A DNA stretch of 63,440 bases, the filler included, from Rhabdomonas costata (taxonomy: Eukaryota): NCBI GenBank assembly GCA_019059605.1. It is 51 parts of 51 records of this genome, joined end to end, with 100 filler letters (N's around TTAATTAATTAA, not from the genome) between each part and the next. Parts side by side here need not be neighbours in the genome. Positions count along the whole stretch, not along the records: positions 31,154 to 32,299 come from JAHMHO010026327.1; 50 more parts are not named here. The stretch is one strand, 5' to 3'. The position numbers and the translations under genes are program-made. Of the stretch, positions 5,780 through 60,665 are shown piece after piece. Position 1 is the stretch's first letter. Each line of letters opens with the position of its first letter. A model generated the notes under the pieces. It was given only the letters and a program-made list of their open reading frames with translations. It was not told where the DNA came from and did not search any database.

Positions 5780-6851
5780 TTTCAGTGACCCTTGATGTTC
5801 TTCCGTCCTTTTCCTTATGGCCCGTTTAGTTTACTTATTCCAAATAAAAGTGCAAATACCGTAATCTCAGAACCGCACCACAACACACATGACTGGGTTT
5901 AAACCATATCTTTACGGGACCCCTCCCAGCGGTTTGCCGCTATTGCAACCAACCGAATCACTATTTTACCCACATTGCCAAAATTCCTTCATGTTTACCC
6001 TTTCGAAGACCTTCTTGACGCCAAAAAAGCCCCATTTTCAAGCAGTTTTGCCCCCAAAATCCGTTCCCAGAGCCTCAAAAACCCTCAATTCATATAAATT
6101 CCGTTTTCCGGAACCCACCACCACCCCNNNNNNNNNNNNNNNNNNNNNNNNNNNNNNNNNNNNNNNNNNNNTTAATTAATTAANNNNNNNNNNNNNNNNN
6201 NNNNNNNNNNNNNNNNNNNNNNNNNNNGGTTTTTGTTACGGCACTGCTGAAGTGTGACGCGAGGGATCTATTCCAGCAAACCCTCCACAGACGCAGCGCG
6301 TTTTACGTCTCAACATTTGGTGCCCAAAATATACGCCCGACAATGGTACCCGCCTCAGCAGCCCGACCAGCGCCTAAACCAGAAATTGCCGTAGTTCAAC
6401 CTACTACTCAAAGCCCAGCACATAAATGTTTTGATCAAACAACGCGATCGACGATGGTATGAAACAAAGGAAAGGTCCGGTTTCTCAACACCGAATGACG
6501 CCGCTGTCCCCTCGCGGTTGGCACCTCACGGCGTGTACCAAGCGGAGCTGCCAACCGCTTTAACAGCCAGTACCCAGAAGAGCTTCGCTCCCTTCTGGGA
6601 GTTGTGGATGTTCCAAAGCGGACCCTTCGAAAGGCGCAACTATCCAATGTTCCCCGTCTGCCGTTCTTGAACATTCGAAAATTGAGCTATCCGGAAAACC
6701 CTTACCCCACGTCAGGGTGAACACGCCACAGCCTGAATAGAGGTGTGCAGGAACGACCACACACCAGCAATCCATGAATCCATGCGTTACCCAAGATGCA
6801 GAGGCAAGAACTCTTTACGCGTATTTTCTTAACCCCGGAAATGCGGCAGAC

Positions 6852-7359
6852 CTGAAGATGAGAACTGCAGCCAGGGTAAGGAGCAGGACTACGGCAACCA
6901 CGGGGATTACCACGGGAATAGGGTTGAAGGCCTGGAAAGGAGGCGGCCCAGACCAGGGAAGGGGCTGCTGCACAACCCCGTTGCACGCGACTTGGGCCAG
7001 CGCGGCAGCCACCCGGAAGTCCGTCGGGGGGAAGGCAGGGATATAGTTGTTGGCTTGCACCTGTGCGTGGGTGTCCACGTGGGTGGGAGTTTTGGCGCAG
7101 AATTTGGGATCGCTTAGTCGAAAATCGTCATCACGCGCTCACAAAGCGAAACTGAACGGCGCTGGGAGAAGGGGGCAAGACTGGAGAGAGAGTGCTACCA
7201 TCGCCAGCACGCCAACGTCCGCAGACATCCAGCGAATGAAGCTCAGTGTGGCGTTCAGCGCGGCACATCCCGCGGGGGTGCTCCACAAGTCCTTCCGGAC
7301 GACAAAGGTGGAGAAGCCGACGATGGGGTAACTCTTCTCCCCGGCAGTGTCCAGGATGT
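6852..7359 (-). CDS. PstS-like (type 2 periplasmic-binding fold) domain, C-terminal part, followed by a transmembrane helix; 2 exons
   Basis: Exons 7359-7199 and 7060-6852, GT-AG intron 7198-7061 in phase 0. ILDTAGEKSYPIVGFSTFVVRK and TLSFIRW match PstS xYPIxxxTxxxxxK and lxFxxW. It ends in the hydrophobic IPVVIPVVAVVLLLTLAAVLIFR. Confidence 0.75.
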
Positions 7360-7826
7360 CTAAAGCAGATATTTNNNNNNNNNNNNNNNNNNNNNNNNNN
7401 NNNNNNNNNNNNNNNNNNTTAATTAATTAANNNNNNNNNNNNNNNNNNNNNNNNNNNNNNNNNNNNNNNNNNNNCAGCTTTCCTTCCTATAACGACCGAT
7501 TCCCTGCCTGGAAAGGTTGATGGCAAGCCTTCTGCCTGGACGGCAGTTTCATCCAATACAACCCACCGACCCACCTGGAACAAGGGTTAAACTGCCAAAC
7601 ATTATGTGCAACAGAGCGGAAAGAAATCACCGAGCAGGCATACCAGAGCGTTATTTCAGCCAAGGGCACGATAAAAATGTCGAAAGGAAGCGCGGGATTC
7701 CACGATGGAACACAAGCACGTAACCTACCCACACGTGGCTCTCCATCTCCTGGCCCTCCTCTTTTTGACGCGAGTTCAGCTTCTCCTTCGCCAGCTCGGG
7801 GTCCGCGGCCTCTATGGCGGAATGGC

Positions 7827-8601: not shown

Positions 8602-9113
8602 AAATGCGATGCCAAAAAAACNNNNNNNNNNNNNNNNNNNNNNNNNNNNNNNNNNNNNNNNNNNNTTAATTAATTAANNNNNNNNNNNNNNNNNNNNNNN
8701 NNNNNNNNNNNNNNNNNNNNNTGTGTTTTGGTATATGGTGGGGGACCCGTATCAGTTGGATTGGGAAGAGGATAACTCGTAACTCGTCGGGCCTTCCTAT
8801 TGGAACGTGTAATTAAGAGTTTGTTTGTTTGTTTGCCCCAGAAGACGTGCCCTCGGTGCTGATCTTCGCCTTAAGCCTAATTCCCGTGCTTTTGCACTCG
8901 TTCATCGATCAGCCATTGGGTATATTAGTCAGCACTGCAGTGGCACAGGTTAACTGTCCTGCTTATATCTTCCAGCATTTTTAGCCGTATAGCAGCAAAA
9001 GAAAGGAGAAGGTTAGTGAGGAGTGGAGGGAATAGATGAAAGAAGACAGGAAAACTGGAGACAGCAAAGCCTGTCGAGGGAAGAGGAAGCTGTGCTTGTC
9101 TTTTTGGCCACAG

Positions 9114-9835
9114 GGCCATTCGGAGGAGACCACGCTGCTCACGGCGACGCTTTCCCAGCTAAGTGGGACGTGGCAGTCTTCGTTCGGGACCTTTTCGGAC
9201 TCCGACATGTGGCAGGCACGTCCTGCCACTGCGGCGCGGGTGGTGGTGTCGGCGTCCAGCGAGACTCATTCGATTGGGGCCAAGGCAAACCTCGACCCCT
9301 CGACCCCTCCTCATGCTCTTGTCCCTCGCTTGCTTTTATTGATTCGCATTTCTTTCCCTTGTGCTATACTCTGAGAAACGCTTCACTTCAACACTTCAAC
9401 AGAGCTAAACTAGCTACGCTCACACCCGATGCCACGATTCATCTGCCAGCTCCGTGTTGGCCCCATCCTTATAGGCCTGAAACGTTGAGGTGTGCCAAAA
9501 TTGTATGGGATTCGCGTGTTGCAGGCATTCGTCACCCCGTGGGTCGCATGATATTCCCAAATGGTGCAGCTAAGGAGATTATGGTTCCGCCAAGGTATTT
9601 TTTCAATTATGCGGGTGGTTTTCTCAGTACTGGCGACGATCGACTGCATGTCACTTTCTGCTTTTTCCAGGTTTCGGCCACCCCGTACTCCGTGGGGTTC
9701 GTGCCTCTGTTTGCGGCGCTGGACTCAAAATTGCCCGTTGCAATGATGAGGAACATGTTCCACAAGGCCACCACTCCCATTCCCGGACCTGTCCAGGACG
9801 CGATTGAGAATGCCACGCTCCCGGCCGACCTCTCG
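9114..9835 (+). CDS. PstS-like domain, middle part; 2 exons
   Basis: Exons 9114-9284 and 9671-9835 give GHSEETTLLTATLSQLSGTWQSSFG...IGAKVSATPYSVGFVPLFAALDSKLPVAMMRN...VQDAIENA, collinear with PstS SGTxxxFTxYLSxxSxxW...VxxTPGxIGYVxxxxAxxxxLxxAxLxN. Confidence 0.75.
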
Positions 9836-9968
9836 GTTCGATCTTCTCTCTCCCTCACGGATAACAACNNNNNNNNNNNNNNNNNNNNNNNNNNNNNNNN
9901 NNNNNNNNNNNNTTAATTAATTAANNNNNNNNNNNNNNNNNNNNNNNNNNNNNNNNNNNNNNNNNNNN

Positions 9969-20656: not shown

Positions 20657-21454
20657 CTGAAAATCACTCTGCCTCTTTTACACTGTAGATATCAAAGAGA
20701 GAGATCCATGAACAAGAATCCGGACCACTATCATTGGATAACGTCTGAACGAATGAACGCTACAACAGTTGCTTCGCTCCTTCAGTTGCCACTCCGGAAT
20801 TCGTCGCCCGACTACGCCATACACTAAACTTGGTGCATGCACGTCACATTTTGAGTCTTATCTGTTGCGATGGTCTCCGCGTTGTTCAATACTCTGACTG
20901 ACGTCAGCATATCCTCTGGAATCACTGCACCCAAAGAGCAGCGGCATGCTGCCGTGAATGGAACACGGAACTTCTCCCTAACAGTTGAGTAGCAGGTCAA
21001 GGCTCAAATTTCATTTTTCCACAAGGTGACCACGGGCCAAATTCAACACAACCCAGTGGTAGCTCCTTTCCCGTCTTGCTGAAGANNNNNNNNNNNNNNN
21101 NNNNNNNNNNNNNNNNNNNNNNNNNNNNNTTAATTAATTAANNNNNNNNNNNNNNNNNNNNNNNNNNNNNNNNNNNNNNNNNNNNTTTTTGTGAATTTCC
21201 CGGCCCCGCAACTTCACGCCCGAAAAAAGCCGGCACCATTTTCTTCTGCTACAGTCGGACAGCCCTTTCTTTTTCTACTTGGCTTGTTCGTCCTCCAGTC
21301 CTCCACGCTCCACGGATAAAGCCACTTTCCGCAATCGCCTTTTGCCTAAGAATGCGGCTTCCCCTAGCTGTTTATCTCACCGAACCCAGGGCACATTCGT
21401 TGTTCCTGCTGTTCCCTATTTTGTACGAGCCTTGCTCGATTTATGCCTCCCCAG

Positions 21455-21763
21455 GTTCTTTCAGGGTCCAAGAAACATAACGCCCAGCTCTGGGACCTTC
21501 ACTCTGGGCAGTGCACAGCGATCCTGGTGGGCCACGCCAAGACCGTGATGCACGCCATTTTTGCCGACCCCCCTGCGGGCCACCGCGTGCTCACTGCCAG
21601 CCGCGACAACACTCTGAAGGTGTGGGACTTGAGGGCAGTAGCCACCCCGCTTGCCACTCTGGCGGGCCACACGGGGGACGTGAACCGTTGCGCGGTATAC
21701 GGGGAGTTTGCCGTGAGCGGCAGCGATGACAAGACTGTTCGCACATGGCTGCTGCCTCCCTGA
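21455..21763 (+). CDS. Terminal exon of a WD40-repeat protein
   Basis: AQLWD...GHAKTV...TASRDNTLKVWD...GHTGDV...SGSDDKTVRTW then TGA; CCCCAG acceptor. Confidence 0.9.
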   Translation, partial: VLSGSKKHNAQLWDLHSGQCTAILVGHAKTVMHAIFADPPAGHRVLTASRDNTLKVWDLRAVATPLATLAGHTGDVNRCAVYGEFAVSGSDDKTVRTWLLPP

Positions 21764-28671: not shown

Positions 28672-29644
28672 GGGCTCCATCAGCCGCGGCGTCGCCATCA
28701 GGAACGCAGAGTATACCTTGCGAAAGGACAGTATGGCGGGTACCCCCGACACAACCCCCCCCCCCACGAAGGCAAGGGGGAGTAACGTGAGGCAGCGAGG
28801 AGTGAGGAGTAAGAGGAGACAGAGAAGGGGGTGAGGGCCGATGGGCCCATGCCCCATGGATGGGTGGGTTGCCCGTGGGGAAAAGAAACGCAAGTCTTCC
28901 GCGGGCAAAAGGCACCTTGGTCAAGTGCACAAAGTGTGTGTGTGTGTGTGTGAAGGCTTCAATACTTCCCCTTCTCTGACAGTATACACTAAGCGCCCCC
29001 AGGCCACCCTCTTGCTCTGGGAAGGGTCACCGCACATTCCCTTTCACCCCCCTCCCAATATAAACGTACCACACGACGGGCCGTGGGGATGATCTGTCCG
29101 GAGCCCCTTTGGAAGGCCTCCTGGGCCACCACAGCGTCCAGCAGGCGGAACTTCACGTTGCGGATGGGCTCATCGCACAGCGGACCTGCATCCCCCGTCC
29201 CCGATCCCATTCCATCTCAAGTCATTCCCGGATTTCCCTTGTGAGCCCACACCCGTCCTCCCACCAGCGCTAGGAAAGGAGTGACGACAACACAGACGAA
29301 ACGGAAACGCAAGAGAAGCAGAGTGGGAGCCGCGCAAAAGATTTCCATGAACTATGAGTTTTTGAAATGAGGGGTGTGATGAATGGCTAGCCCATGACAT
29401 GGCCTGTATCGAAAGAACACTGCTGACGACCGAGGGAGGAAGACAACAGAGAGAGGGAGCGAGCGAGCGACAGAGGAAGAATGAGATCAGGAGGAGAGAC
29501 ACGCCTTCGCGGGCGCCCCACTGGAAGCCCTGCACGACACTGTCACGGACGCTGGTCAGGAGGGTCTTATCAACCTCTGCGGAAAGGGTGTCATCAATGA
29601 GGATGTTCGCGCCGTTGCTGCTGGGACCGAAGGCCCACACCGAC
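28672..29644 (-). CDS. EFTUD2: U5 snRNP GTPase EFTUD2/Snu114; 3 exons
   Basis: Exons 29644-29505, 29185-29070 and 28716-28672 give SVWAFGP...NILIDDTL...[35 protein letters not shown]...[25 protein letters not shown]. Confidence 0.95.
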
Positions 29645-31556
29645 CTGCACCCGCCCCGCCACACATGTACTCATCTACTCAGGCGATTGGGGAAGGCTGG
29701 TGCATCGGCGGGCTCACTTCGCTGAATCTATACCTCTGCTCCCTCCACCGAAACGAGAAATTACTGCAAACTGCAAAGTCAGAGGAAATACCCCCCCCCC
29801 ACACAAANNNNNNNNNNNNNNNNNNNNNNNNNNNNNNNNNNNNNNNNNNNNTTAATTAATTAANNNNNNNNNNNNNNNNNNNNNNNNNNNNNNNNNNNNN
29901 NNNNNNNACAATGCAGACGGGTGAATTCACGAGGATGGAAAATCCCGAAGGAAGTCTCTCAAAAGATTCGGAAAAATGTACTCTCCTCACACCGCACTGC
30001 ATTGAATGAAGCCTGAAGCCTTTCATGACAAAAAGAACAGTAGATCCCTGCAATTGGAACATGATGAGAAAAAAGACACAAATTACGTACAGAACAGCTC
30101 GCTTTGATAGTGTACAGCATTTTTCATTTCACGATATAGGAATGACGCCTGGTAAATTTGGTATCTATGATCTGAGACACCTTCTATTTGTTACGGCGCA
30201 CTGTGAAGGCGTTGATTCAGTCGCGCAATGGTCTGCGACAAGCGAAGCATGTATAAAACTCCTGTTGTCCCAGCCCAAGGGAAGATTTTTATTCGATTTT
30301 TCGAACGCTTTTGCCAAAAGGCGGCCAATGCTGGCTGAAGCCAACCTTCGAGGAAAAAAGCAAGCCTGGTGAGTGAGGTGCAAACCCTCTTCCATGTCAA
30401 AGACAGCGTCAGAGAGTGATACACGCTGACACAGACACAGAAAGCTTTTGTGTACATGTGGACAGGCCACACTTGCGCTTCTGAATTGAAGCTCCGGGGG
30501 GGGGGTCGAAACATGCGACGGGCCCACTCATACAACCAATGCAAAAAAAGCATAAACAAAGCAAAAAAAATAATGCGTTTAACCCGACATTTAACCCCCA
30601 GTCGATTTTGTCTGTAATAACTTTCCAAAACAAACAGAAAAGCTTCAGGCTTCATCGCCAAATGCAGCCCTTTGGTTCCTTTCAGTCTTGCGTCTGCACC
30701 AGCGGTACCACCAGTATGGCGCACTTGGAAGCAAACGTCGGCAGGAAAGATCTTTTGACGCAGGCGCAATTATTCACGCTTGCGACGGAACCCCAAGAAA
30801 GAGGGGGTATGCTTTCACCAACCAAAAATACACTAGGCGTGTTGTTCTCTGCTCATTCACAGCACAGTACAGGCCTTTCGCTCGGTATCAAACTCACCAA
30901 GAAGACACCAATACGGCGGACGGTAGACATAACATCCTACCTGCAAAATACCTACCTGATTTTTGGGTTTTGGGCCGTCATTACAGAAACTATAGAGTTT
31001 AATTGAAAACAATTTTTTGATTGCATTTATTTCTAGTATTTTGTGGATGCTACNNNNNNNNNNNNNNNNNNNNNNNNNNNNNNNNNNNNNNNNNNNNTTA
31101 ATTAATTAANNNNNNNNNNNNNNNNNNNNNNNNNNNNNNNNNNNNNNNNNNNNGGTGGTTGTTTTCATGTGAAGGTATTGTGTTGAGCCTCTGCAGTCAC
31201 ATGGGTAGTGGAGAATACCCCAAAGCGGAGTACCCGTTTGTTCGTGACGCATGAAGCTTTGAAGAGTTCTGTTTAAATATTCATTTCTTGTTTTCAGGGT
31301 GACTCTCAGGAGCTGATCTCATTTGTGGAATTCAAGCAGAACAAAAAATTGCACTCTCTCACATTATTTAATGCATCCATAAACGCACGCGAATCATTGG
31401 CTTCTCCACCTTTTCTATTTCGAGTGCATAAGGGGGAAATTTTCCCACAGAAGTGTCTGCTCAAGGGGTCAACGCCACTCTCACGTGAGATTTGAGCAAA
31501 CTTGTCCTGGTCTGAGATGATTTCTGTGTGCCAGCATGCCCCCTCCTCACCCCTAG

Positions 31557-31864
31557 GACCGAGCCTCGGCCAGTGTGACGGGGCTGATCCAAGGCAGCCT
31601 GAACTTTGCCCTCACCGACACCGTGCTGCCGCGGAGCCTCCTGCAGGCGCACGACCTGGTGGTGATTCCTGTGATCGTGAACGCCCTGGCGGTGGTGTAT
31701 AGCCTCTCGGAGCTCCCGGATGGGGTTAGCCTGGTCCTTCACGAAACCGACTTGGTGAAGATCTTCAACGGCGCCATCTCTGTGTGGAATGACCACAGCA
31801 TTACCCACCCGAACCCGTTCATTCCGCTGCTGCCCGTCTCCATTACCATTATTGTGCTTGCCTG
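31557..31864 (+). CDS. PstS-like domain, N-terminal part; single exon
   Basis: GSLNFALTDTVL...LVVIPVIVNALAVVYSL...LVLHETDLVKIFNGAISVWNDHSITHPNP...ITIIV matches PstS TVDFGASDAPL...PxxxGxVVxxYNL...LxxIFxGxIxxWNDPxIxxLNP. CCCTAG acceptor and GTGAGC donor. Confidence 0.85.
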
Positions 31865-32908
31865 GTGAGCTTCACTTTGCTGCGTGTCGTCTTTTTCTCT
31901 TTGAATATGAGTGCTGTGCGCAGCCTCGTCGCAGTTGTTTACCCGGTCTTTGAAATCACCTGTGCTTGCTGTATGTTTTCCAGGACAAAGGACAGCCCTG
32001 CTGAAGGACAGTCCATCGGCATGCATGTTTGTCTGTGTATGGTTGGAGAACATAACTGATGGGTCAATTTTAGGAGTGGCCGGTACAGCAAGACACTAAG
32101 AGACGGTAAACGTAGTCGTCGTCCCAATGCGAAATATGGTTTGCCTTTCCCAGACAAGCCGACTGCTCTGATGCACCAAGGAGCCCAAGGAGCCAGCAGC
32201 CCTTGCCAGTTGTTGTACCATTTGTGCAGCCTAAGCCAGTGCCATATCTTATGCATGGGGTGCCGCTCCTCATACCCCTTCCCGCTTGCCCCACCCCCAN
32301 NNNNNNNNNNNNNNNNNNNNNNNNNNNNNNNNNNNNNNNNNNNTTAATTAATTAANNNNNNNNNNNNNNNNNNNNNNNNNNNNNNNNNNNNNNNNNNNNG
32401 TCAGGATTTCAAAAAGTTAGGTGAGATTGGCAGGCTTAGCTTCACTTAACTTGACCCGTTTGAAGAGGAGGAGAGCAGAAGGACACACACACATTCGCCA
32501 CCAACAACACACACACCTCCTCAGGACGGTATTCCTGGAGGCACCGCTCACCAGCCACCACCCTGTCCTCCCACCTTGGCCTCTGCGAGAAAGCCGCAAA
32601 TAATTCCCTTTTCCGCGTCATATGCACCCCTTGGATCATAGTACGGACTATGAGAAGAGAAATCTCATAATTTTCCCACACAACCATCCCCACCTTTCTC
32701 CAAGACCCCAGAAACGTGCTCAGCGATATGTGTGATCCCTGGGTTCAACAACCTTCGCTTTCTCGATCTTGCTGATCTTGCTCTTTGGGGGTCAGGGTCA
32801 GGGCGATTGAAGGACTGTCCATCACCCAGTGCCCCAACCTTACTGCGCGAACCAAAAGCGGAGAGGGCCCACCGCACGCACGCACACATACACACATACA
32901 GCTTTCAC

Positions 32909-42366: not shown

Positions 42367-43030
42367 TGCCAAGCACGCCCTCATGCGGCGGATTGGCTTT
42401 TGGCCCCACCCAACGTCGCGCTGGACCTGCAGGTGCCTTCTCACTTTTCGAATGTTGTGCCTGCGGTGGTTGGGAGTCCCTCTGTATTCCTCCGAGCACA
42501 ATTGCCCCGGTTTTGGTCGTCTTGTGGATGTTCTAGGTGACCACTATCTTAACATGCGACTCTGCGGCCAACATCGCCGAGGCCGCCGGCTTAGTGGTGC
42601 GCCTGGGAGCCCCTCTGGAATCGTTGGTTCCGGGTGACCTTTTTGGAGAGCTTCCACCGGGGCAGCTCCCTGATGGTGGACATCTCTGTGGTGGACCCCC
42701 TGCAAGTTGCCTCTTCGTACAAGGCGCAGGAAGTGGGGGTCATTGCCCAACGCCGTGAAGAAGCGAAGGACGCTCTATATAAGCAGAAGTGCGAGCGGGC
42801 GGGCTACGGGTTCACGGCTTTGGTCAGGGAAGCTGGGCCTCAACAGCGACAAAAGTGCTGGACAAGCTCTTCCGGGTATACTCTGCTCGCAGGGGCTGTA
42901 AAATCAGGGACTGTAAGAAAGAGCTGTGGGGACGCATGTCGGTGGCCCTGATGCGAGCTGTGGGGTCGCAGTTGGTGTGGGGAGTCTTCGGTTCCCCCTC
43001 TCATAAGATTTCGAACGGGTGGAAAGGAGC
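42367..43030 (+). mobile_element. 3' part of a degenerate non-LTR retrotransposon with restriction-like endonuclease (RLE)
   Basis: Across frameshifts: PHAADWLLAPP, FRMLCLRWLGVPL, CP...DVLGDH, PGDL...LMVDISVVDP, RREEAKDALY...C..AGYGF, and LWGRMSVALMR. Confidence 0.8.
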
Positions 43031-43223
43031 GTGTGTATTGTGTGCGTTTTTTTTCTTTTCAACCTATCATCTGTAGTTTAGTTACGTACATGCACAGATT
43101 AAATTTCCTCGAAGAGACCTTCCCCGCCCACTTTCCACCAAAATCGTTCTTCTACGCGTTTTTGTTCCCCCCCTCGATCTTGCTTTCTCTTTTCCCCGTT
43201 GCTCTTCTTGCTCCTCTGAGAGA

Positions 43224-43379
43224 GCTCTGCTCCCCAAAGCTTTGGTGTTACTCCTTCATCCCACCTCTCTACTATTTTCTTGATGTTCCACGCCGCCCAT
43301 GCTACTGCTTTTCAATTTGTTTACGATGGACCTCAGCAGCTCTCCACTTGCCTTGCTCACTTGTTAACTTGATGACTTG
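43224..43379 (+). repeat. Dispersed ~155-bp repeat, copy 1
   Basis: Near-identical to 58963-59115, including a long exact core TCATCCCACCTCTCTACTATTTTCTTGATGTTCCACGCCGCCCATGCTACTGCTTTTCAATTTGTTTACGATGGACCT. Confidence 0.92.
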
Positions 43380-44892
43380 CCACGAGAGGTCACTTCTTTC
43401 AAAAAAAAACTTGTCCTTTTCTCTTCTCGGTTGATGGTCCTTGTGCTCCTTTCTACACCATTCCACCTGCTTTTGTACACAGTGCACTCTTGGGACTAAA
43501 AAAAAATCCAACNNNNNNNNNNNNNNNNNNNNNNNNNNNNNNNNNNNNNNNNNNNNTTAATTAATTAANNNNNNNNNNNNNNNNNNNNNNNNNNNNNNNN
43601 NNNNNNNNNNNNGGGGTTTGGGGGAGAATATTGCGCCAAAAGCGATCTTTTTCCGGCCATTCCGTGATTGAGCTGAAGTGAACTGTGGATTCACTGACCG
43701 GTTGTTTCTTGAAAAGGGGTGACGGTTTGAACGTTTATGATTGTTACATCTCCTCCATATTCCCCACGAAACGGTACGTTGGGAGGTCAAAGGACCGGCG
43801 GAACAAAAATATGGAAGACACCAGAAGAAAAATGATCCCAATTCAAAACAAGGAAGGGCAGTCAAAGGAGGGGGAGTGCACTACCTTCAACTTTGCTCAT
43901 TTTGCTGGATGTTAGCAAGCCAAGCAACACCAGCGAAATCCGCAAAAACGTACACAAGAACATAGTGGAGGAGCTCGTCGCACCCCCCTTTTGCAGGGGG
44001 CGGGCTGATTCGATACGAATGCACGGCTCTCGCTTTTGCTGTTTAACTCTCGCGTACTCACACGAACTCACACTGACCACAAAAACAGCCTTACTCAAGG
44101 TGCACAGTGACGGAAACAAGTGAACACAACAAGTGAAAAAACAAGAGAGGAGAAAGCAAGCGGTGATCTGAAAGTCGTCAGAAGCCAACGTAAAACTCCT
44201 CGTTTGCGTGGTCCCTTTTGTCCCCAATTGTGTCCCCATTTCTTTGATATCTACCGTTATACCTCCCAAATCTGCCAGCACATGTACAGATTGCGAACGA
44301 GACCAAATTGCACAGACGGGGGCCCCTGACATCCCATTCAGCTTACTATCGCACCCACCGGGTTTTCGGGAGAGGTGGTGCTGGTTCGTTTGCACGCCTC
44401 TGGTGATAAATGAGAGGCAGAAGCCTAGAAAGAACCATCTCCAATAATGTGTCCGATTCAGACGTTAATCACCTAGTACCCGCTCCAAACCCACTACCCG
44501 CTCCAGCCGCGCCGCGGACTGGACTACGCACCTTAAATAATATTGTTCCTTCTGTCTGTCAAAGCCCAGCAATGACAATTCAGAAGCCTAAAACGTTTAG
44601 CTGTGTGAAACGCCCCACCCCCCCAAAAAATACTATTGTCCCACAAAATCACAATGAAGAAGGCAAAACCTGCAAAAGACAGAACCTCCCGGCCCGACAT
44701 CCACTGTGGTGAGCAGGTGCAGGTCCGTGCACCTAGGAATCTATGCAGTCTCTCCACANNNNNNNNNNNNNNNNNNNNNNNNNNNNNNNNNNNNNNNNNN
44801 NNTTAATTAATTAANNNNNNNNNNNNNNNNNNNNNNNNNNNNNNNNNNNNNNNNNNNNTGTGGTGGGTGTGTGTGGTTTTTGTGTGTCCCTC

Positions 44893-44917: not shown

Positions 44918-46245
44918 GTTCTCTCCTACCCTTTTTCTGAGGTTTTCTGCTGAAGATTGCCCCTGTGGGGAAATTGCTCTGCACTGCATCCTGTCCCGGA
45001 AGGAATGATTGAACTGAAGGATGGTGCAATGAATTTCCTTTTGAATGCGACAACACCCCAAAAAAAAACCGTGTTGTCTGCTTCAGCAATCGGTGCTTCG
45101 CCTCACCCTTTTGCCTGCATAGATCTTTCGTTTCTACTTTTGGTGTAAATCACCTCTCTTCTCCTGTCGTCCAAGTTGTGAACATTGCTGTGAATGGACT
45201 TTTGAATGGTGCAGGCATCCTCAAGAATAAGCAATGCGAAGGACTGGGGAATGCAGGACGAAAGCTGCTTGTGTTAAAATATTTATTGGGCCTCACTGAC
45301 CTACTTTTCTACCGCTGCTGCTTTGTTGTTGTGGCGTTGGTTCTGACACACACACACACATGCGCATACAAATCACCTAATCACCTGCTGCCACATTTGG
45401 GGCGCTGCTGATGTTGACCTTGAATTCCTCTTTTTTTTTCCAGGCTGGCAAGACCGAAAACGCTCCCGGAGCCCCAAAACAGCATAAAATGGCAAATAAA
45501 ATGGCATATAGGGCAGCTACGAAAAACCGAAGCATTCCGGCGCACTCCGGTGCCAGCGTGAGGCTTCACCCTTCCTTTAGTCCAAGCTGGTCCATCCGAA
45601 AGCTTAGCCGAAAATGCAGAAGTCAAAAAATGGCTTTTAAAGGTCCAAAGTGGACCCTTCAGGATGTCACGAGTGCCTGTAGAGATGGAGCCCAGCCTCC
45701 AGCTGCCAGTAAACTCACTCAGGAGTGCCACTTTCCCACCAAGTGTGGGCCTCAACTGGCCAGTCTAGCTCAAGTTCTGGTACCCCGTCCTAGGTCCTCC
45801 CGTCCGGCTCCCGTCCGGCTCCTACTTGTTTCGCCGGGGGTCCGTGTCGGAAGTCAACCAGATTTGAGCCGAAATAAATGGTCCTACCCCCCCCATTTTC
45901 GGGGTGACACCAGACGATTGGTGCAGGTCAGGCGAAAGCCTACAGAGAAGAATACATGAATATATGAATGAATGCATGGGTGCTACTGGAAGACCCCCCC
46001 CACNNNNNNNNNNNNNNNNNNNNNNNNNNNNNNNNNNNNNNNNNNNNTTAATTAATTAANNNNNNNNNNNNNNNNNNNNNNNNNNNNNNNNNNNNNNNNN
46101 NNNGTGGTGGTGTGCTGCGGCAGCCTGCGTGAATGTAAATGTCGGGCTTTTTTGCCTCGCGAGGAGAAGGGGGGAGGCGCCTTTTGGTCTGTTTAGGTGT
46201 GCACCATCTAGACGGTCATTTCTACGCACCTCATCTGTGTTTCAG

Positions 46246-46626
46246 TCTGAGCACCCATCTGGATCATTTGGGAAGCACCGACGTGTTGTCGGTGTTCCTG
46301 CGATCGGTTTTTGGCGCCTCCTCGCCCTACACCATTTCCGACATGGCGCTGGATGCGGCGGCGCTTCTGGACCACCTTGGCGTGCCGCAGGCCCACCTGT
46401 GCGGGTTCAGCATGGGGGGGCTGATCGTGCAGCAGATGGCGGTGAGCTTCCCGGAACGGGTGCTGTCGCTGACCACGGTGTCCTCGCCGGCGGGGCTGAG
46501 CGAGTGCAGTCTTCGGGGCCAGATGGCTGTGGTGAAGCTGAGCTCGCAGCCTCCCGCGAAGGACATCCAGCGGACGGTGAAGCTGGTGAAGAGCGTGTCC
46601 ACTCGGAAGTTCTTTGACGCGCAGAA
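46246..46626 (+). CDS. Alpha/beta hydrolase (GxSMGG, bacterial-like) exon
   Basis: LSTHLD...PYTISDMALDAAALLDHLGVPQAHLCGFSMGGLIVQQMAVSFPERVLSLT; TTTCAG acceptor and GTACGC donor. Confidence 0.9.
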
Positions 46627-47097
46627 GTACGCCTGGTCACCTCGTGTTGTGTTTTTATCTTGTGAATCAGGGAAATCTTTTGGAAAGTTGGAATTGGGAT
46701 TGTGAGGTGTTTTGTTTTTGCTAAGGGTGCACATTTAGTGTTGCTGGAAAAGTGGGGGCTGTTGTATTGGGGGGTGGGGCGTTAAACGTGTTAAACTTGT
46801 TAAACAATATCCGAATGTCCGAAACGTATAACACCGTTGACCTTTTAACGCCCCCCCCCCCCGCAAAAAAAATACAATTGGTCTGAAAGGTGACCTCCGC
46901 TCGGGATTCATCACAGCGTGGGCAAAGCTGAGAAAAAAGTTCGGTGTGAATCCGGTGAAAAACTGCGCGGTGCAAAGATTTACGTTTGACTCAGAGAAGA
47001 GGTGGAAAAGCACCACCAAGCTCCCACAAGCCTGGGAGGCAGGAGCCATGTGCTGTATCTTTTCCCGGGGCTTGCAGGGATGCACTGCAGCAGTCGC

Positions 47098-49841: not shown

Positions 49842-50987
49842 GGCTGTATCCTCGTCAAAAAAGGATAGCCCAGAACCACTGAAATTGCCGTCTGAATCAC
49901 TCCCAAGAACGACTTAATCGGCATGGTACCTAATTTTCAGACAATTTGCACAAAACTGTCACGAGGAGTCTTTCTCCATTCGCTAATCTCACCGTGAGTC
50001 TTTGCTGCAACGGGTACTTATGCAAGCGGAATCTCTGCACCACTTCTTGACTTATAAACAAATCTGAAGCTCCGGAATCTAACAGCGCTCTTACATGCGT
50101 ATTACTAATCCGCAACTGAAGTAACATCAATGGCTGAGAGAGTGGAGGGTCTGGAAGATCGGAAAGTAACCACACCCATTCCCCTACGTTCCTCTGGAAT
50201 GGCAAGACGAACAAAGGAACGGTAGTACTCCATGCCACTCTCCGAATACTGCTGACCTTTGCCTCTGCACACTCCTCTGACATCTCCTCTGAAAAGTCTT
50301 ACTCCACCACACTCCACTCACACAACTCTGTGGAACTTCATGGCTCAACTGACCACTTCCGAATCTTAGGCTAATGTCCCCCCTTACTCTTAAGGAGATT
50401 TCTCCTTCTGCACCCAACACCGTCAATTTGTGGTTTTTGACCTCTCTGGAAACCTCTGAAAGTGGATGGTGGCTCACAACCGCTAACTTAGCATTAGTAA
50501 TTCGTTGTCGGAACAACATTTCCCGCAATTCTTGTTTGCTTTGGACCGATTCCGGATCTTCCTTATTACTCCTCTGAGATTTCTGAACCAGTCCGGAACC
50601 GCTCCGCTCTGAACCAGACTTCAACACCATTAATGAGCCCGCTCGTGCACTTTCTGGATTATGGAAACTGGTCTGAGGCTCTGCCCTCTTCTTCTCAATT
50701 TGTTCCACGCTTGCCTCTGGAGTGGCACTCTGAATCTACTCTGAGGCTGCCTCCGGTGTCACTGAGACTGCTCAACATGATCAACTCTGGTTGATCTGAG
50801 CACAGGATCTGTTGGTCTCTGCAAAATTCTTAGCTGGAATGTTCCTGGAGCTCTCTGCACAACACTTGCGCTGGCTGGCGTCCTGACTGTGGACGAAGTG
50901 GGCCTCTTTGGTGGGGCGGGAGTGGCCCTGCCTCCTGCCCACACTAGTTTGACTGATCTACACTATTCTAAAATTCTCCAAAAAACC
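49842..50987 (-). mobile_element. Degenerate Ty3/gypsy LTR retrotransposon, gag-protease region
   Basis: Retropepsin VRALLDSGASDLFISQEVV...VRLANG and, after a frameshift, VVLGYPFL. Intronless, with stops and frameshifts. Confidence 0.85.
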
Positions 50988-58556: not shown

Positions 58557-58960
58557 GGGGTTTTGTGCAGAGGAAGGTGAGGTGGTTCCAGAGAGTTTAG
58601 AGGTTCCTGCTAGACCAGAGGAGTATGACCTGGAAGCTTAGGACGAAGCGTTCACAGACGCAGAGCTTCCAGTAGGTGACGAGATTGTGGCAGCCGAACC
58701 ATAGCCCAGATAGCCAAGAAAGTCCAGAGCCAGATTTAGAGAGGTAAGTGAAGACGGCTCAGAGAGTGGATTGCCCTGTTTACAGACCAGAGCCGTACGC
58801 GGAACCACAGGTGGAGGAGGTTTCACACAAAGCCAGAGCTTGAGGAGACCGTATTGGATAGCGGATGAACGATTTGGGCAGAACGCAGTTCAAGGGCCCC
58901 CTGGTGGTCTTTTGATGTACATTTTGAGGACTTTCCTGATGGTGTGACGGATGATGTGTC
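58557..58960 (+). mobile_element. Possible 3' remnant of an LTR retrotransposon
   Basis: Decayed acidic ORF with the same CAGAG-rich bias as the gypsy contig at 49842-50987, ending TTGAGGAC...GG then TGTGACGG (58943), a possible LTR start. Confidence 0.3.
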
Positions 58961-58962
58961 TT

Positions 58963-59115
58963 GCTCTGTTCCCCAAAGCTTTGGTGTTCTCATCCCACCT
59001 CTCTACTATTTTCTTGATGTTCCACGCCGCCCATGCTACTGCTTTTCAATTTGTTTACGATGGACCTTCGGCAGCGCCCCTCTTGCCTTGCTCACTTGTT
59101 AACTTGATCAACTTG
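58963..59115 (+). repeat. Dispersed ~155-bp repeat, copy 2
   Basis: Near-identical to 43224-43379. Confidence 0.92.
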
Positions 59116-60665
59116 TGTTGAAGTCGTCCATAATTCCCTTTTCCCTTACCCCCCTCTTTCTTCTTCTTCTTCTTTGTGTTCCTGCACGGTCTGTTGAACT
59201 CTTTGGACATTTTGGTGCTGGGATGCCCCTCAAAAATCGGATACAAAGCACAAAAGTAGTAGAGTACTAGAGAGCACAATTGCACAAGGCCACAAATTAG
59301 CAAACACCGTTAAATTACTGTTTACCTTATACAATTGTGGATGACATCGAAGTGCAAATGTGGTGCTAAGATAAAAACTTTAGCACAAAAAATGTCCGCT
59401 TAAGAACTGATAAATTTATATGGAACAAGCAAATCGAGCACACGTTTGGTAAAAAAAAATGCCAGGGCAGCAGCCGCCTTAGATGGATCAATCGTGGGAG
59501 TTCATGTTGAAACGCAACAGCCAACCATGCAAACGGACTTGCTGACACGGACCCATCAAGTTGCATTACTGCCTGACCCGACCCCTCTACCAAGTGTGGG
59601 ACACCTTTGTGGCTTGCACAATGGGCAATCTGACGGCTGTCTCCTGGTTTCTCGCTCGCTTCGTGGGACCTTGGATCTGGATCTGCATTTACCACAACCA
59701 CCNNNNNNNNNNNNNNNNNNNNNNNNNNNNNNNNNNNNNNNNNNNNTTAATTAATTAANNNNNNNNNNNNNNNNNNNNNNNNNNNNNNNNNNNNNNNNNN
59801 NNAACAACAGCAGCTCCTCTGAACCAGGAAATGAGTGAGTGTGTTCCGTGTTCTGAAGTGTTGGGTGACTACAAGAATGAGCACAACGTCCACCAAACCA
59901 TCAAACGGAAGGACGAAACTGAATGGTCAGGAGCCCGATGTCTTGAATATGGCTGACGGTGTTTGAATAACTTCAACAGCGAACCCAAATAAAAAGTGAA
60001 CGAGAGAGAGACAGCGAACGACAGACCAATTGGTTATTGCGTAACTCAGCGCAGTAGTGGAAAAGGTTGTGTAGAACAAAAAGGAGTAGGGTACATAGAA
60101 GTCACAAAGACGGTAGGCTGCCGAAGCATACCTCCCGGGCGCCAAATGCGAAAGAAAAGCCCCGCAGGGCCTGCTCTTGGTCCTCGTCGATCATGTGCAT
60201 CATAAATTTAATCACCTGAGTGCGGAGCGGGGAATTCTGGAATGATCCACAAAAGCACCGGCAGTCTGAAACATTGAGGAACCAGAGTGCAAATGTTGGG
60301 ATGCAACGTTTACCAAAATTTCTCATTGTGTTCAATAACACCAAAAACGGCATAGGTTCCGTCGTTGAACATCCGTTTCGTGCGCCGAGAAGCGGCGCAA
60401 AAGGGATGGAAAAGAGCCGCCATGGGTAATCATTACCGACCGAGGGTGAAAACTCCGAACCCCAGGAATGTCCACACACAGCGTTTCGGGAAGTTTGCTG
60501 AAAATACAAAAGCATGCGTCGTTGTTTAATTAACATTTTCAACTGAAAAACCGTTCTACTATCATTGGCTAATTTCTGCTGTGACATCCGGAATAGCCAC
60601 GATCAATTTTGCACAGCAGTATGCCTCAGAGCCGACACCAAAGTCAAGGAAGACAACAGAGATAC

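Follow-up and report, generated by a model that had tools for sequence, protein, structure and literature searches.

PstS-like exons on three Rhabdomonas costata contigs

The stretch of DNA analyzed here (the window) comprises 63,440 bases from the euglenid Rhabdomonas costata and consists of 51 contigs of 1139–1148 bp each, with a GC content of 42–61% per contig. Neighboring contigs are separated by a spacer, TTAATTAATTAA flanked by 44 N on either side, and the window is not a single locus; when we call pieces "unlinked" we mean that they are sited on separate short contigs, and nothing more. On three of the 51 contigs we observed coding pieces resembling the bacterial phosphate-binding protein PstS (Pfam PBP_like_2, PF12849), namely a focal exon at 31557–31864, two exons on contig 8722–9868, and two exon pieces followed by a transmembrane helix on contig 6228–7374 (Table 1). 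As developed below, these are probably exons of at least two nuclear euglenid genes, or of at least three domain copies, encoding tethered tandem PstS-type surface proteins that have lost the phosphate pocket.

An earlier note on this DNA had reported PstS-like pieces on three contigs, and that count was reproduced with both a family hidden Markov model (HMM) and tblastn. The family HMM was built from 18 homologous domains, with R. costata sequences left out, and was run against 1885 six-frame open reading frames (ORFs) of at least 20 residues. It detected the focal exon with an E value of 2.8e-28, an ORF on the minus strand of contig 6228–7374 with 1.2e-8, and the two exons on the plus strand of contig 8722–9868 with 0.044 (exon 9114–9284) and 7e-4 (exon 9671–9868). 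The next-ranked of these 1885 ORFs had an E value of 2.1 (0.78 in another profile scan), and tblastn with 133 fetched proteins matched no contig beyond the same three of 51 at E≤1e-3. Pfam profiles gave no match at E≤1 to the second and third pieces alone, which are significant with the family HMM. The collinearity that had been claimed for the pieces is also seen on the domain model, where they occupy HMM positions 59–155, 157–211, 204–263 and 261–309. The three contigs exhibit no mutual DNA similarity at E≤1e-5.

The focal exon is a 308-nt open frame with a GC content at third codon positions (GC3) of 0.81. Alone it matches Pfam PBP_like_2 over profile positions 61–126 of 267 with an E value of 4.3e-4 and a score of 20.6 bits, which is under the cut-off of 27 bits, and a phmmer search of 1.84 billion representatives returned 130 matches at E≤1e-3, four of them at E≤1e-10, with a best value of 7.5e-26. 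A word-indexed search of proteins of 182–2000 residues yielded one match among 315 candidates. This match, eukprot:RCo048202 (555 aa, referred to here as P0131), shares 100 of 102 residues with the focal exon, and its RCo prefix denotes transcriptome-predicted proteins of the osmotrophic euglenid R. costata (PMC8219788). The two differences fall within 31836–31850 (Ser/Pro at residue 494 and Ile/Val at residue 498) and could reflect allelic or strain variation, or else a second, nearly identical copy.

The focal exon opens in phase 0, and at its end two bases (TG) are left over; in P0131 this codon is completed as Cys502 and DDEF comes next. Neither the 403 bp ahead of the focal exon nor the 434 bp after it code for the neighboring residues of P0131 (341–399 and 501–555, respectively), all matches in both flanks having E>1. 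The bordering introns therefore extend past the contig ends. Given the AG and GT borders and the 100/102 match to a transcript-derived protein, we consider the intron reading of the focal exon to be sound. Borders backed by a transcript-derived protein are those of the focal exon only; the remaining exon borders were placed by homology and splice motifs. Conventional euglenid introns have GT(GC)/AG ends (PMC8219788).

Contig 8722–9868 carries two plus-strand exons, A and B, and removal of the intron between them joins the exons at K|V in a manner that restores the order of P0131 domain 1 (...AVGVK|VSVTVGSVGF). The two exons are 61–62% identical to P0131 domain 1, not about 98%, and the piece is therefore not P0131's own domain 1. 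We regard it as a paralogue of that domain.

On the minus strand of contig 6228–7374, the exon that reaches the contig end resembles domain 2 of P0017, a 783-residue relative of P0131, as opposed to 28% identity with the end of P0017 domain 1; its match to P0131 276–323 has an E value of 2e-5. An AG at 7360–7361, which the earlier note had taken as the acceptor, may be a chance occurrence. Removal of the 138-nt intron joins ...GVLAM|VQANNY... and is collinear with P0017 644→652 and P0131 323→331. The exon part that follows is 48% identical to P0017 652–678 (E 5e-7; E 0.031 for P0131 331–362), and the helix encoded after it starts ~20 residues past the domain end, with the P0017 helix at the equivalent place. 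If the donor after 6852 is unused, the frame stops at a TAA (6815–6817) after 12 further codons. GC3 falls from 0.72–0.81 in the exons to 0.50 in the 12 codons past the donor (binomial P 0.037) and P0017 has a longer tail, and for these reasons we moderately favor splicing at 6852 over read-through to the TAA. The 624 bp after the helix (6228–6851) contain no coding-like ORF and no region of homology.

Table 1. Positions of the PstS-like exons, introns, splice sites and helix in the window
Feature	Position	Strand	Basis or remark
3' splice site AG after pyrimidine tract, ahead of focal exon	31555–31556	+	sequence CCCCCTCCTCACCCCTAG then GAC
Focal exon, N-lobe of PstS-like domain 2	31557–31864	+	P0131 residues 400–501 + two bases of Cys502
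5' splice site GT (GTGAGC) after focal exon	31865–31866	+	sequence
AG acceptor ahead of exon A	9112–9113	+	sequence
Exon A, domain-1-type paralogue, degenerate "SGT" pocket loop (S-E-E)	9114–9284	+	57 codons; 62% identity to P0131 163–222; GC3 0.77
Intron, 386 nt, GC...AG	9285–9670	+	homology + motif
Exon B, same paralogue, reaches contig end	9671–9868	+	61% identity to P0131 219–279; GC3 0.73
Exon, C-lobe of domain-2-type copy, open to contig end	7199–7372	-	48% identity to P0017 599–644, E 4e-15
Intron, 138 nt, GT...AG, in-frame TGA inside	7061–7198	-	homology + motif
Exon part: PstS-like domain end (conserved ...Y-I-P-x-F...C-N-G) + short Pro-rich stalk	6920–7060	-	homology
Transmembrane helix, 22 hydrophobic residues, then Arg	6854–6919	-	Kyte-Doolittle mean 3.18 over 19 residues
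Probable 5' splice site CAG|GTCTGC	6850–6851	-	GC3 drop + P0017 tail

The statement in the earlier note that the pieces are nuclear and have spliceosomal-type introns is borne out by the AG/GT borders of the focal exon, the GT-AG intron of 138 nt and the GC-AG intron of 386 nt. By far most members of the domain family are bacterial, as would be expected if the pieces were contaminants from bacteria or inactive remnants of a pstS gene acquired from one. We find such an origin scarcely credible, as the coding sequence is interrupted at AG/GT borders by flanks that are missing from the transcript-derived protein, which contradicts it for the focal exon, and as frames are intact within exons. The exons also have a GC3 of 0.72–0.81 as opposed to an intron GC content of 0.49–0.57. 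Furthermore, the eukaryotic signal peptide and the tandem layout of P0131 speak against a bacterial source, as does the fact that the closest relatives are long multi-domain proteins.

Layout, fold and binding pocket of the encoded protein

The N-terminus of P0131 reads from its sequence as a typical secretion signal peptide. It is followed by two stretches that match Pfam PBP_like_2 with an E value of 5.4e-21 and 76 bits (cut-off 27). The profile assignment put forward in the earlier note is thus significant for P0131, with the focal exon alone scoring under the cut-off and the other pieces detected via the family HMM. Domain 1 (D1) spans residues ~27–365 and domain 2 (D2) begins at ~366, with P0131 ending inside D2 at residue 555. 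PstS chains in the PDB matched P0131 with E values of 1.4e-19 to 3e-15, the best match covering residues 35–342. We also assayed the fold with an AlphaFold2 model of P0131 made from a 40-sequence alignment (mean pLDDT 85.5, pTM 0.71); this is a test of P0131 and not of the window pieces. The best 20 Foldseek matches listed from the PDB were all PstS-type phosphate-binding proteins, the best being 8ods (TM(target) 0.91, rmsd 2.5, E 4e-25) and 1quk (TM(target) 0.90). The ESM Atlas searched with P0131 returned bacterial PstS clusters only.

P0017 has a signal peptide, D1, D2, one helix near residues 692–715 and a tail of at least 67 residues, in which no Pfam family was found. An alignment of 541 residues shows P0131 and P0017 to be collinear (29% identity, E 6e-64). 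This collinearity, together with the resemblance of the third piece to the end of P0017 D2 with its helix, indicates that the predicted plan of the family is signal peptide, D1, D2, helix and tail. By the same comparison the focal exon is assigned to the D2 N-lobe, the third piece to the D2 C-lobe plus membrane anchor, and the second piece to the middle of a D1-type domain. The PBP_like_2 module lies extracytoplasmic to the membrane span, as seen from the signal peptide of P0131 and from the helix followed by Arg on the third contig. No seven-transmembrane (7TM), kinase, cyclase, phosphodiesterase (PDE) or RGS part was seen in the window or in P0131, which is incomplete at its C-terminus.

For the binding pocket, 200 PBP_like_2 domains taken from the 133 fetched proteins were placed on the family HMM and read at eight columns, which we take to be the phosphate ligands T10, F11, S38, D56, R135, S139, G140 and T141 in E. 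coli PstS numbering. The commonest patterns were T-F-S-D-R-S-G-T (20 domains) and S-F-S-D-R-S-G-T (15 domains), and canonical-like pockets were observed in 86 of the 158 domains having residues at all five core columns. In PhoX of X. citri the phosphate ligands are Ser34, Ser62, Asp80, Arg159, Gly164, Thr165 and Asn201 (PMC5439949). P0131 reads E-L-N-T-K-S-E-D in D1 and V-T-A-D-L-D-E-F in D2, and thus retains one of eight columns in each domain. Among the window pieces, the focal exon has A and D at the S38 and D56 columns and exon 9114–9284 has S-E-E at the S139–T141 columns. P0017 D1 reads T-L-S-S-R-A-G-S.

Most of the residues that coordinate phosphate are exchanged for others, in part for Glu or Asp, and classical phosphate binding by these euglenid domains therefore appears unlikely. 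Functional high-affinity phosphate binders, used for scavenging or sensing at the surface, would be in keeping with PstS as by far the closest solved fold and with the full D1 pocket kept by many eukaryote-type relatives (S-L-S-D-R-S-G-T in P0009, P0011 and P0018). However, P0131 has Lys or Leu in place of the Arg and Glu-Asp or Glu-Phe in place of the Gly-Thr of the SGT loop, the window exon has S-E-E, and negatively charged side chains would be out of place in a site for an anion such as phosphate, all of which makes such binders very improbable. The PstS identity given in the earlier note therefore stands with respect to the fold, whereas a phosphate function is doubtful.

A different distribution of pocket residues is seen in P0009, P0010, P0011 and P0018. 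Their first domain has the full pocket (S/T-L/F-S-D-R-S-G-T), whereas in their second, membrane-proximal domain the pocket has degenerated and Glu recurs at the G140 column, a pattern that suggests a division of labor between binding and scaffold.

Gene number, family size and the rest of the window

As the earlier note supposed, the pieces stem from different copies. The focal exon belongs to D2 as found in P0131, the second piece is a 61–62% paralogue of D1, and where the second piece ends and the third begins, both cover one conserved motif (before a conserved Tyr-Pro), with differing sequences. The second and third pieces are therefore not parts of one domain, and under the two-domain plan at least two genes, or else at least three domain copies, would be represented. 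One gene or two could have supplied the focal exon and the third piece. It had also been claimed that the splice phases of the pieces do not join, which held for the focal exon with its phase 0 start and TG end. One continuous domain spread across the three contigs was considered as well, and is ruled out by the continuation of P0131 with DDEF, by the 61–62% identity and by the overlapping motif.

The overlap is compatible with one long gene if each piece lies in a different domain copy. In such a single-copy gene the D1-D2 unit would be duplicated, giving three or four PstS-like domains in tandem, and contig 8722–9868 would supply a third, D1-like domain. Relatives with four tandem domains do exist (P0001, P0002, P0003 and P0030), and P0131 is incomplete, so further domains could follow. 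The closest full-length relative, P0017, nevertheless has exactly two domains before its helix and P0131 is collinear with it, while the third piece is of the D2 type and adjoins the helix. Since a single gene also makes the recovery of three contigs in 51 still less likely, we hold this arrangement to be improbable.

Three hits among 51 contigs amount to 5.9% (Clopper-Pearson 95% interval 1.2–16%) on the assumption of random contig sampling. In the published R. costata draft, 36,105 contigs reach 1 kb or more (PMC8219788, Table 1). With two genes the Poisson mean would be 0.017 and the probability of three or more hits 8e-7, and P reaches 0.05 at a mean of 0.82. Such sampling underlies the earlier view of a large expanded family, that is, tens to hundreds of genes constituting a major euglenid sensory system. 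That view also draws on the origin of the pieces from different copies, on the two differences in 102 residues between the focal exon and P0131, which fit an allele or a near-identical copy, and on the fact that relatives elsewhere are receptors.

The protein searches did not return the members that a large family would be expected to have. In a collection of 5.8 billion proteins the focal-exon query found no paralogue besides P0131 among proteins of 182–2000 residues, the P0131 query found P0131 itself and two bacterial PstS only among proteins of 305–972 residues, and the third piece (exon 7199–7372) had no match among proteins of 103–2000 residues. P0131 is thus alone among proteins of this organism within the sizes covered (at least 182, 305–972 and at least 103 residues), even though a paralogue of 60% identity would share many 5-residue words with the query. 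The median contig of the R. costata transcriptome is 430 bp (PMC8219788), and weakly expressed members would therefore be short fragments outside the protein sizes that were searched. In addition, no signaling domain was seen in the window, and random contig sampling is itself an assumption.

Taken together, the expansion is not established, its support being the three-in-51 sampling argument, and we judge a family of tens or more members to be unlikely. The further step to a major sensory system, encoded by tens to hundreds of genes, we likewise regard as tentative and rather unlikely. A more far-reaching proposal is that hundreds of contigs bear such exons, encoding tethered tandem proteins with acidic, rebuilt pockets for non-phosphate ligands that would serve lineage-specific nutrient sensing or capture and would mostly be too weakly expressed to give long transcripts. 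We consider this quite unlikely.

Several other features were observed elsewhere in the window. An ORF at 49933–50298 (-) matches retroelement-type aspartyl protease families (Asp_protease_2, E 3.2e-8; gag-asp_proteas, E 4.1e-8; RVP_2, E 3.7e-5) and is probably a fragment of a long terminal repeat (LTR) retrotransposon. A stretch of 151 bp with 92% identity is shared by 43224–43373 (contig 42367–43512) and 58963–59108 (contig 58557–59702), which are otherwise unrelated, and this is probably a dispersed repeat; weaker common stretches occur in the contig pairs 44859/54819 and 28662/34891. Coding pieces include a WD40-repeat exon at 21368–21760 (+) (WD40, E 4.9e-16), an alpha/beta-hydrolase piece at 46139–46702 (+) (Abhydrolase_1, E 7.4e-13) and, at 29173–29670 (-), a short piece resembling elongation factor 2 / EFL1 with an E value of 0.0011, which is under the cut-off.

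Relatives, proposed role and comparison with known systems

We scanned 57 of the 58 phmmer matches of at least 600 residues with Pfam (P0012 was left out) and found PBP_like_2 in all but one. Among these 57 long relatives the added features were 7tm_3 in 18, a protein kinase in nine, an adenylate/guanylate cyclase in six, Ephrin_rec_like in four, RGS in two and PDEase in one. Seven of the 57 combine PBP_like_2, in tandem or fourfold form, with a helix close to the C-terminus and have no further family.

The best three matches to the focal exon (P0001, P0002 and P0003, of 1534–2386 residues) have three or four PBP_like_2 stretches together with Cys-rich Ephrin_rec_like/DUF7630 repeats. The C-terminal multi-pass part of P0001 and P0002 weakly resembles the fungal TRP family PF06011 (27.7 and 19.3 bits, respectively, with a cut-off of 28.5). 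The layout of these two proteins could be that of a ligand-binding domain plus a channel-like part, and we found no discussion of it in the literature.

An unrooted FastTree phylogeny was computed from 153 domain sequences covering at least 60% of the 337 profile columns, leaving out 47 shorter rows (P0131 D2 among them) and the four window fragments. With an SH-like support of 0.956, P0131 D1 joins P0017 D1 and, from both P0002 and P0003, the third domain. This group is nested in an 11-member clade, supported at 0.924, into which none of the 44 tips from proteins of at most 450 residues falls. With an unrooted tree and a long branch, this position shows affinity and not origin.

Fusions of PBP_like_2 with 7tm_3, in proteins resembling class C G protein-coupled receptors, are already in print for Spizellomyces SPPG_06488 (PMC3251606) and Plasmodiophora (PMC4815078). 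The domain is also named in the abbreviation list of an amoebozoan survey of G protein-coupled receptors (PMC10445921), and a diatom "PstS" entry stands in a table of transporter genes (PMC3237598). No description of a euglenid PstS-like family was found in the titles and abstract starts of the literature on Euglena and diatom PstS or on Euglena binding proteins, and the supplements of PMC8219788 may annotate RCo048202. The phrase "poorly described" in the earlier note is hence fair for function but not for the domain fusion. PBP_like_2 ectodomains in many protist receptors were known already; what is new is this euglenid case.

We propose that the encoded product would be a type I surface protein with a signal peptide, two tandem class II (Venus-flytrap) domains, one transmembrane helix and a cytoplasmic part. 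Its domains would be of the same stock as bacterial PstS, in a eukaryote-type branch, and each may close around some small solute, though not orthophosphate, unless one of them or both now serve as a structural scaffold. One option is that a signal is passed through the helix to the cytoplasmic part, as in the kinase and cyclase relatives. Another is that of a tethered capture protein, functionally like algal CBA1 or diatom phytotransferrin. Under either option it would be a capture or sensing module at the surface, rather than the binding subunit of an ATP-binding cassette (ABC) importer, and either role would suit an osmotroph. The sensory system suggested in the earlier note is accordingly plausible by homology to the protist receptor fusions, but no signaling domain accompanies it here.

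A number of points weigh against tethered tandem surface proteins with a lost phosphate pocket. The pocket call comes from a profile alignment of divergent sequence (20–29% identity to relatives), D1 retains Ser in the S139 column and D2 retains Asp in the D56 column, and the P0131 domains may still hold an altered anion site. No collection protein covers contigs 8722–9868 or 6228–7374, which could be silent copies. P0131 ends in the middle of D2, and the focal exon and the helix contig may belong to separate genes. Finally, a stop 12 codons after the helix is possible.

If tethered tandem surface proteins are indeed encoded, they provide a clean intron-containing case of the bacterial-type PstS fold as a surface module in Euglenozoa. 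As both domains are without the phosphate clamp, the name "phosphate-binding" should not carry over to them. Should the family prove to be large, it would constitute an uncharacterized nutrient-sensing or uptake system in an organism that absorbs dissolved compounds; if it is not large, the euglenid protein would be one further member of a widespread protist class with PBP_like_2 ectodomains.

The euglenid form shares with bacterial PstS of the PstSCAB importer (8ods, 1ixh/2abh, 1pc3) a two-lobed class II binding-protein fold, with a TM(target) of 0.84–0.91, and an N-terminal secretion signal. Unlike bacterial PstS it has spliceosomal introns, tandem domains and a C-terminal helix tether, and its phosphate residues are mostly replaced. 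In DING proteins (2v3q, 2q9t) a PstS-like protein of the same superfamily likewise occurs in a eukaryote. Their TM(target), however, is 0.59–0.66 compared with 0.84–0.91 for classical PstS, and P0131 lacks the DINGGG N-terminus. DING proteins are reported as phosphate binders in eukaryotic tissue for which genes are lacking, which is a known puzzle, whereas the euglenid form has a real intron-containing gene.

Closer in layout are the protist receptors with N-terminal PBP_like_2, which belong to the same eukaryote-type branch. There too the domain is an extracellular module, often in tandem, with a degenerate second domain that has Glu at the G140 column. In contrast to these receptors, the euglenid form has lost the pocket in both domains and not in the second alone, and none of their 7TM, kinase, cyclase and PDE parts is seen in the window or in P0131. 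The tandem proteins with one C-terminal helix (P0017, P0028, P0035, P0054 and P0099) and the fourfold P0030 have the same combination of PBP_like_2 repeats and helix. P0017 differs in that its D1 keeps the Arg, Gly and Ser/Thr of the pocket, which the euglenid D1 does not, and in its overall identity of 29%.

The diatom phytotransferrin ISIP2a is a membrane-anchored uptake protein with a binding-protein fold and offers a functional analogy, as does the algal vitamin B12 protein CBA1. Both belong to binding-protein families separate from, and without sequence relation to, the euglenid protein. The likeness to them is one of function, in that a bacterial-type solute-binding fold is placed on a eukaryotic surface without an ABC permease.

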